From: a virus
Lineage: Duplodnaviria > Heunggongvirae > Uroviricota > Caudoviricetes
Virus record (IMG/VR): IMGVR_UViG_2859821903_000001
Direction: 5' to 3' (one strand)
Length of the DNA: 46,213 nt
Shown in pieces: positions 44,301 through 46,213 of the stretch (within the stretch, counting starts at the first letter, position 1; each line of letters opens with the position of its first letter). Made by a program: the position numbers.

Positions 44301-46213
44301 ATTGTCTCAGGAACAGGATGGTATTAAATCGCATACCCACAGTGCCAGTGCATCCAGTACGGATTTGGGGACGAAAACAACCAGTTCGTTTGATTATGGT
44401 ACTAAGACCACGAATAACACCGGGGCGCATACCCATAGTGTTAGCGGTACGGCTGCTTCAGCCGGTGCACATACCCATTCGATGACATTTGTTTCAGGTG
44501 GTTCCAGTGGTGCTCCGGGAAGTGGATCACCTGATTATTCTAAATACAGTGTTAACACTTCTTCTGCAGGCGCTCATACGCACTCTGTATCGGGTACTGC
44601 TGCAAGCGCAGGTGCACACGCACATACTGTAGGTATTGGTGCGCATACGCACTCGGTTGCGATTGGTTCACATGGACACACCATCACCGTTAACGCTGCT
44701 GGTAACGCGGAAAACACCGTCAAAAACATCGCATTTAACTATATTGTGAGGCTTGCATAATGGCATTCAGAATGAGTGAACAAGCACGGACCATAAAAAT
44801 TTATAATCTGCTGGCCGGAACTAATGAATTTATTGGTGAAGGTGACGCATATATTCCGCCTCATACAGGTCTGCCAGCAAACAGTACCGATATTGCACCG
44901 CCAGATATTCCGGCTGGCTTCGTGGCTGTTTTCAACAGTGATGATGCATCGTGGTATCTTGTTGAAGACCATCGGGGTAAAACAGTTTATGACGTGGCAT
45001 CAGGGGACGCGTTATTTATTTCTGAACTCGGTCCGTTACCGGAAAATGTCACCTGGTTATCTCCGGAAGGGGAGTTTCAGAAGTGGAACGGCACAGCCTG
45101 GGTGAAGGATACGGAAGCAGAAAAACTGTTCCGGATCCGGGAGGCGGAAGAAACAAAAAACAGCCTGATGCAGGTAGCCAGTGAGCATATTGCGCCGCTT
45201 CAGGATGCTGCAGATCTGAAAATCGCAACGGAGGAAGAAAACTCGTTGCTGGAAGCCTGGAAAAAGTATCGGGTGTTGCTGAACCGTGTTGACACATCAA
45301 CTGCACCGGATATTGAGTGGCCTACAGTACCTGTTATGGAATAATCGTTACTGCTGTAGCCATAATAACGTCATATACAAGAGTTTGCTGGATTACGAAG
45401 AATGCGCGCTGATTTTGAAGATAAAATCAGTGGTACAAAGTCCGAAAGGCCTGGGCTGAAAAAACTACTCAGAATATTATCGGCAGGTGACACACTGATT
45501 GTCTGAAAGCTGGACTGACTGGGGGCGTTTTTTCTTCCATGTTATGGGGCTCAGGCCGGAATGGAACGTGAACTGACTGTTAAGAGAACAATAGTCGGGT
45601 TTTGAGGCTGCGAGATTACATAGAGTTAATTGGTCGGTTAATAGGGTATAGAGGTTATCCAACTATTCGTTACGACATATATTGTTGTTACCTACAAGTT
45701 ATGAAAAATGTATTATTTTATTATTTTTTTTTGTATGTGCAGATTAATACTTAATACGCATCAATCTGCACATTTGCTTTTGTGAGAGAATTATCGTTGT
45801 AAGAGTGATTTAATATTGTTGGCGACTACTTCAGGATTATTATCATAGACCATATAAAACTTATCACTAAGTAAAGGTAATGATAGGTTTACGACCTCCT
45901 CGTCTTCTTTTTTTAATAAGGTCAAAAGTTTTACGTCGCCACTCGATATTTCGCTGGCTAAAACTGCTCTTAATTCTTTTTGAGGCCATTCCTTATTGAC
46001 TGAATTAGCAGATAAAATAGCGATGACATATTTTGATTTAACTAGTGCTGCATTTATTTTATCAATTAAGGAGTCGCCCCATTTTATCTCAACATGATCT
46101 ATGAAGGCTGAAATTTTAAGTTTAGTTAACTCGTCATATATTGGAATTGCAATGTCTTTTTTGTCTTCGCTTGCATGGCATATAAAAACATCAAAGTTTT
46201 CTGTTTCTTTCAT

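Follow-up and report, generated by a model that had tools for sequence, protein, structure and literature searches.

Is the last gene of a prophage sequence, read up to the point where the sequence stops, a whole gene or a piece of one? The question is raised by IMG/VR record IMGVR_UViG_2859821903_000001, a 46,213-nucleotide (nt) stretch of Caudoviricetes DNA, referred to here at its full length as the window. Its final open reading frame (ORF), at 45791-46213 on the minus strand, has 140 codons plus a stop and encodes a TIR domain; the ATG occupies 46211-46213, the last triplet of the window, and the reading frame is open at the edge. An earlier note, made from the window alone, had described a stand-alone TIR gene, carried as prophage cargo and belonging to an undescribed anti-phage system with partner genes farther upstream. 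We conclude, with a probability of roughly 0.93, that this ORF represents the TIR effector at the C-terminus of a type XII retron (Retron-TIR) protein, whose gene the window cuts at codon 395; 45791-46213 would then hold the 3' end of the gene, codons 395-534 plus stop, and with it the complete TIR effector domain.

The evidence that carries this reading is identity with a longer gene. The initial methionine of the window ORF is residue 395 of a 534-residue protein in which a reverse transcriptase (RT) is fused to the TIR domain (RT-TIR), annotated as 'TIR domain-containing anti-phage reverse transcriptase' (WP_005025120.1). The 140 residues are identical to residues 395-534 of that protein, and the 423 nt in the window are identical to the 3' end of the gene both in a record with an intact copy (L001) and in a second record, L005 (CP026839.1, GCA_002950115.1; 4.27 Mb). 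L005 matches the final 8,213 nt of the window at 100% identity, over a span that takes in an IS2 insertion between fragments of the tail-tip gene gpJ and lom; on this sequence identity it is taken as the source of the window or an identical relative. Pfam placed RVT_1 at residues 97-298 of the 534-residue protein (E=3.2e-19) and TIR_2 at residues 403-499. The full protein scored 670.9 bits on the NCBIfam equivalog NF042941, above the curated cutoff of 600, and 621 bits on the PADLOC RT-TIR_XII profile. The 140-residue fragment alone scored 187 bits on NF042941, covering only the C-terminal third of the model; its match to this model, named Retron_TIR_antiphage, spanned positions 334-464 of 464 (E=5e-55), and its best PADLOC match was to positions 340-477 of 478 of the RT-TIR_XII profile (E=3.9e-41).

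The RT portion also carries the marks of a retron. In an alignment of 23 homologues (40-82% identity), N147-A148-G-M-H151 (the NAxxH motif), Y239-A240-D241-D242, and V296-T297-G298 were invariant. NAxxH (region X) and VTG (region Y) are the retron-specific RT motifs, and an RT with a C-terminal TIR_2 domain is the type XII retron, which is reported to be defensive (Mestre 2020, PMC7736814). Leaving aside the continuity of the reading frame in this genome, every sequence-level feature of Retron-TIR membership that was tested was found, all but the TIR domain in DNA outside the window. The locus is thus a member of a named and experimentally validated family, beyond mere resemblance, and it is not a new system, as the earlier note had supposed: Retron-TIR was validated in 2020, forms type XII in the classification of Mestre 2020, has dedicated NCBIfam and PADLOC models, and is the subject of published protection data.

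The DNA beyond the window edge was read from L005, and positions past 46213 are extrapolated window coordinates. On the minus strand the RT domain continues to the annotated ATG at ~47394. Ahead of it lies a 10-bp inverted repeat, a1 CGGCTCTGCC at ~47574-47583 and a2 GGCAGAGCCG at ~47448-47457, with 116 nt between them and 54 nt from the end of a2 to the ATG; a promoter-like sequence, TTTACT-17-TATGAT (~47596-47624), ends 12 nt upstream of a1. The repeats enclose a predicted 136-nt RNA in which the a1/a2 stem is joined by an msr hairpin on the 5' side and a long hairpin in the msd, with a minimum free energy of -49 kcal/mol (z=-2.5). By this sequence the remainder of the predicted retron lies 0-1.4 kb past base 46213. 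Farther on are a dinI-like gene (~47754-48015) and the attR core in prfC (~48277-48296). None of the SIR2, Macro, SLOG, STING, SAVED, or Argonaute genes proposed as separate sensor partners is present among the neighbors past 46213, which are the dinI-like gene and prfC. The expectation that the rest of the system lies upstream, past 46213, was therefore right as to place and wrong as to kind: the DNA there encodes the first 394 residues of the same polypeptide, together with a non-coding RNA (ncRNA), not a second protein.

The same arrangement recurs in relatives. Loci in Salmonella, two Serratia species, Aeromonas, and Pseudomonas consist of a single-gene RT-TIR unit following 330-820 nt of non-coding DNA, within which a1/a2 repeats of 8-12 bp end 24-61 nt short of the start codon. 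From locus to locus the repeats vary in sequence yet stay complementary (TGGCTCCACC, TGGGCTCAACCC, GCAGCACCCC), and double compensatory changes were observed in 7 of the 20 consensus (predicted) base pairs of the homologue RNAs. In a Pseudoalteromonas locus, an a1/a2 repeat read by eye includes one G-U pair.

That the 140-residue product is a TIR domain, as the earlier note had it, is well borne out. It contains the motifs FDVFICHASEDKK and W-P-Q-K-E-L (WPQKEL), and its Pfam matches to TIR_2 (E=1.6e-19; 71 bits, cutoff 28) and TIR (E=3.2e-12) are far above chance. An AlphaFold model of the fragment, built on a 67-sequence alignment, had a pLDDT of 82.9 and a pTM of 0.78; the fold on whose absence the earlier proposal could have failed is present in the predicted structure. 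A Foldseek search of the PDB with this model returned 88 matches with E<=0.001; the 50 that were listed are all TIR domains. The best, 7uxu_A, shows the AbTir TIR domain as a filament bound to an NAD mimic (TM-score 0.84, root-mean-square deviation 1.8 A, 33% identity). A sequence alignment to AbTir (E=1e-16) equates W76 with W204, E80 with E208, and G46 and S48 with G174 and S176. The E208A substitution inactivates AbTir, the G174A and S176A mutants retain little activity or none, and cyclization of ADP-ribose is controlled by W204 (bioRxiv 10.1101/2022.05.07.491051). The catalytic glutamate that the earlier note had singled out is accordingly present, as E80 of the fragment (E474 of the 534-residue protein), and E80, W76, G46, and S48 are unchanged across the 67 family sequences. 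With the fold and the active-site and BB-loop residues kept, the TIR domain of RT-TIR is predicted to be catalytically competent.

A mechanism can be proposed along the following lines. The RT would copy the msd part of the RNA into multicopy single-stranded DNA (msDNA), a step that is established for retrons generally. The RT-msDNA complex would hold the fused TIR domain inactive by keeping it from assembling the two-subunit active site of AbTir filaments; this caging step is suggested by an analogous case, the RT-Toprim fusion retron Eco2, in which branched msDNA forms a scaffold that cages the nuclease until the phage nuclease DenB degrades the scaffold and so unblocks the effector (PMC12916289). 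Release of the TIR domains would follow when a phage factor binds, modifies, or damages the msDNA; the freed domains may self-associate and cleave NAD+, leading to abortive infection; the cleavage step is proposed because the catalytic residues are conserved and the predicted fold is AbTir-like. No paper on the mechanism of type XII retrons was found in the literature searched.

Published work on the family reports a defensive role. Type XII retrons are described as mediating anti-phage defense and as needing the fused domain in PMC7736814, citing Gao 2020. As relayed in the literature citing Gao 2020, Retron-TIR defense requires msDNA synthesis and structure; it is also reported that the Retron-TIR of S. 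dysenteriae NCTC2966 protects E. coli from T5, and that in the presence of a phage anti-TIR protein plaquing on this system recovers about 10-fold.

Several points weigh against the assignment to Retron-TIR, or against a working retron at this site. An Rfam 15 scan of the retron upstream region gave no match to a retron msr family. The window itself holds the TIR part only, and the remainder was read from identical or near-identical DNA of other records. The allele tested from NCTC2966 may not be the WP_005025120.1 protein, and WP_005025120 was not mentioned in the literature searched. Finally, the copy in the source genome is frameshifted, its alternative TTG start has no Shine-Dalgarno sequence, and the dinI-like gene beside it is split; this copy may be dead.

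The last point is the best-surviving alternative: that the retron here is a pseudogene and its TIR DNA yields nothing functional. We give this a little less than an even chance. Relative to the intact allele, the gene in L005 differs by one synonymous change and by a contraction of a run of five C to four (nt 132-136, codon 46), as a result of which the ATG-initiated frame ends after 59 residues. The frameshift strips a 55-residue N-terminal extension that is kept at the protein level in relatives down to ~45% identity. A reading in which this N-terminus is non-coding, and the frameshift hence irrelevant, was rejected on that conservation, although some homologues are without the extension. 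The C5-to-C4 deletion is common to two assemblies, L004 and L005, and the exact protein encoded downstream of it is recorded on two contigs under two NCBI accessions; on both counts the lesion is probably real, although an error in the length of the C run is conceivable in an assembly. Several different lesions strike the gene in other strains as well, and the prophage around it is degraded, with gpJ in pieces, two insertion sequence (IS) insertions, and the split dinI-like gene; for this reason the frameshift most likely reflects decay.

Set against decay is what remains intact. A 479-residue ORF in L005 begins at a TTG, continues to the TIR stop without further interruption, and spans the whole NF042941 model at 671.4 bits. 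The short ATG-initiated ORF stops 15 nt ahead of the TTG, which makes reinitiation conceivable. In Pseudomonas and Halomonas, homologues naturally lack the extension and start at the equivalent position, and another homologue has no in-frame ATG upstream of its RT core and probably uses a non-ATG start. On sequence grounds, then, the odds that the source-genome copy is active are roughly even.

A separate observation concerns the extension in an independent lineage, that of a 68% identical homologue (L017/L018), in which a nonsense codon falls at position 39, inside the extension, and the RT-TIR core stays open; a protein look-up for it read 11 contigs. Alongside the frameshift at codon 46, the finding is a hint that RT-TIR may tolerate losing the extension.

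It is improbable, though worth stating, that the frameshifted allele is alive in an altered form, producing either a 479-residue RT-TIR or a free 140-residue TIR domain that would escape RT-msDNA control. The second product would start at the ATG at 46211-46213 (the Met395 codon), nine nt downstream of an AAGGA. If true, a live frameshifted allele would amount to either a naturally occurring 'uncaged' TIR NADase or a retron variant that is regulated differently.

More improbable still is the reading of the earlier note, in which a stand-alone 140-residue TIR protein, ThsB-like or of a new system, works with separate upstream partners. A 140-residue product is called on 13 contigs by exact-protein look-up, the AAGGA precedes the ATG, and PADLOC ThsB models do match the product, more weakly. 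Against this reading, the 140-residue call in every locus compared (L003-L010) turns out to be the 3' end of an RT-TIR gene that carries a lesion farther upstream; in L003 and L006-L010 the RT part is broken in each case by a separate frameshift or nonsense mutation. A query with the 140-residue protein gave only nine matches, all short, each of which proved to be a piece of an RT-TIR gene, and the same holds for the more distant 'short TIR' proteins (140-156 residues, 53-75% identity), which come from the 3' end of RT-TIR coding regions. By contig counts, the 534-residue form occurs on 756 and the 140-residue call on 9. The AAGGA is fortuitous, and helps gene callers to produce the 140-residue call. 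The ThsB matches (E=2.4e-16 or worse) fall 25 orders of magnitude behind RT-TIR_XII, and no ThsA, SIR2, Macro, or other partner gene is nearby. The stand-alone 140-residue TIR protein is thus a gene-calling artifact, and it is because of the RT fusion, the lack of partner genes, and the much weaker hidden Markov model (HMM) scores that readings as a stand-alone or other TIR system were set aside in favor of the type XII retron.

The locus is present, mostly intact, in 83 of 5,426 complete E. coli genomes (~1.5%), with 99.4-99.7% identity to the window DNA among the 20 genomes listed of the 83. In a few E. coli genomes the gene is split by an IS1 insertion, an ISSen4 insertion, or a frameshift.

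The weakest alternative, a Tcp-like virulence TIR (of the TcpC/BtpA/TcpB type) interfering with host Toll-like receptor signaling, can be dismissed: Brucella BtpA/TcpB and PdTIR are the closest solved structures after AbTir and the host lineage is related to an enteric pathogen, but the domain is fused to a retron RT with a retron ncRNA ahead of it, has no secretion signal and no Tcp-type N-terminal domain, and belongs to a family found widely among environmental Gammaproteobacteria as well as other Proteobacteria (Sulfurimonas, Nitrosomonas) in defense-island or satellite contexts.

Comparison with known systems places the locus more closely. With Retron-TIR/type XII (Gao 2020; Mestre 2020; NF042941; RT-TIR_XII), the intact E. 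coli/Shigella allele has the same architecture: a predicted msr-msd ncRNA, a1/a2 repeats, an RT with NAxxH, YADD, and VTG motifs, and a C-terminal TIR_2 domain, in one ORF. The differences are that the window holds only the TIR domain and that the source copy is frameshifted at codon 46, losing the 55-residue extension. Retron-Eco2 (Ec67), type I-C, is likewise a minimal retron with RT and effector in one polypeptide, and the RT part of our protein scores 315 bits on the NCBIfam Ec67 model (below its cutoff of 450) and 357 bits on PADLOC RT-Toprim_I-C. The effector of Eco2, however, is a tRNA-cutting Toprim nuclease, whereas that of RT-TIR is a TIR domain of the NADase type. By analogy, the msDNA-caging mechanism of Eco2 may be regarded as the best available template for the control of RT-TIR.

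Among TIR proteins, the NADases AbTir, BtTir, BtpA (TcpB), and PdTIR share the fold, the catalytic Glu, the Trp, and the BB-loop Gly/Ser; unlike RT-TIR, they are not fused to an RT and have no associated ncRNA. Thoeris ThsB is also a TIR protein of anti-phage defense, with a weak HMM likeness to the present domain, and the NCBIfam ThcB4 model gives 31.5 bits against a cutoff of 220. ThsB is a signal-producing stand-alone TIR, whereas here the TIR is fused to an RT; Thoeris has a ThsA effector (SIR2 or Macro/SLOG) adjacent, and none is next to RT-TIR. Assignment to Thoeris ThsB was rejected, given that the upstream sequence comprises the RT of the same ORF, the ncRNA, the dinI-like gene, and prfC, with no ThsA. 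A TIR effector of CBASS, Pycsar, or a short-Argonaute system was rejected on the RT fusion, the absence of partner genes, and the much weaker HMM scores.

The setting of the retron is a prophage. The window starts with the prfC promoter and the first ~70 nt of the gene (1-170), followed by an integrase gene (385-1608). Nucleotides 135-154, within the prfC fragment, recur 2,064 nt past the window end with one mismatch and constitute the att core; that copy lies 42-61 nt into the full prfC gene past the right end. The recurrence places the retron inside the prophage, at its extreme right end. From the sequence, the element is read as a ~48-kb lambdoid prophage in the 5' end of prfC, of which the window lacks the last ~2.1 kb. 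The earlier view of the TIR ORF as horizontally acquired prophage cargo in an anti-phage system, with the remainder past 46213, is upheld in the L005 DNA. No match to the retron DNA was found in the phage genome collection.

The ORF has a GC content of 32.4%, against 51% for the window, and lies on the strand opposite to the late operon, convergent with stf, tfa, and an invertase remnant; its description as AT-rich, on the minus strand, and placed after stf and tfa holds. The stf gene occupies 42031-44760, and tfa (44760-45344) lies between stf and the remnant, a frameshifted N-terminal piece of a Pin/Hin-type serine invertase on the plus strand at ~45381-45611, the translation of which shows stops. 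RefSeq labels this DNA 'recombinase family protein, frameshifted' in E. coli genomes. Lying between tfa and the retron, the remnant marks the junction of tail-fiber inversion and cargo. A repeat search identified an imperfect palindrome with 19-nt arms at 45735-45773 (no strand assigned), adjoining a run of nine T and 18 nt past the TIR stop; its sequence suggests a possible transcript-end hairpin, shared by the RT-TIR transcript and the tfa/invertase transcript that converges on it. Simple terminator scans called no terminator, this palindrome included.

Other observations were made along the prophage. The gpJ gene is present as several ORFs (303, 227, and 254 residues) within 36936-41092, and the IS2-like element between the gpJ fragments and lom consists of orfA (39820-40296) and orfB (40253-41092); with gpJ broken, the prophage is defective. 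A second IS, at 1913-3186 just downstream of the integrase gene, contains a minus-strand transposase ORF with rve/HTH_21 domains. The dinI-like gene is split (32 + 66 residues) in L005 (at 6199-6460), L006, and L010; in L001 it is intact at 86 residues, and the split adds a second lesion at the prophage's right end. The prophage also encodes a DNA methyltransferase of the N6_N4_Mtase family (17226-18347; Pfam E=3e-42); a phage Dcm methylase is reported in the reviewed literature to activate retron Ec86. Besides one chance CRISPR-DR match, the Rfam 15 scan of the retron region returned a sub-threshold, partial match to IS009 over the 3' end of tfa (~45250-45305; L001 5900-5952), at 47.9 bits against a gathering score of 117, which probably reflects an Rfam model built across homologous tfa sequence.

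Relatives of the retron occupy other elements. In L011, L012, and L013 (Salmonella, Serratia), RT-TIR homologues of 54-66% identity lie directly downstream of a P4-type primase with Zn_Ribbon_Prim/Toprim_3/D5_N/Pox_D5 domains (in L012, only a Pox_D5 fragment at the contig end), and DUF5375 is found nearby in L011 and L013. This context is satellite-like and not that of a lambdoid prophage; the retron therefore moves between the cargo slots of different mobile elements.

As a discovery the locus carries little weight: Retron-TIR has been named and validated since 2020, and the window itself adds nothing new. It offers, first, a methodological caution, in that a window edge and an in-frame ATG together made a domain resemble a gene, an error that gene callers repeat on lesioned or AT-rich copies. 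It also documents a retron as cargo at the right end of a lambdoid prophage integrated in prfC. For the family, the existence of both intact and N-terminally truncated natural alleles could serve the study of the type XII mechanism, including its trigger, its restraint by msDNA, and the product of its TIR domain.

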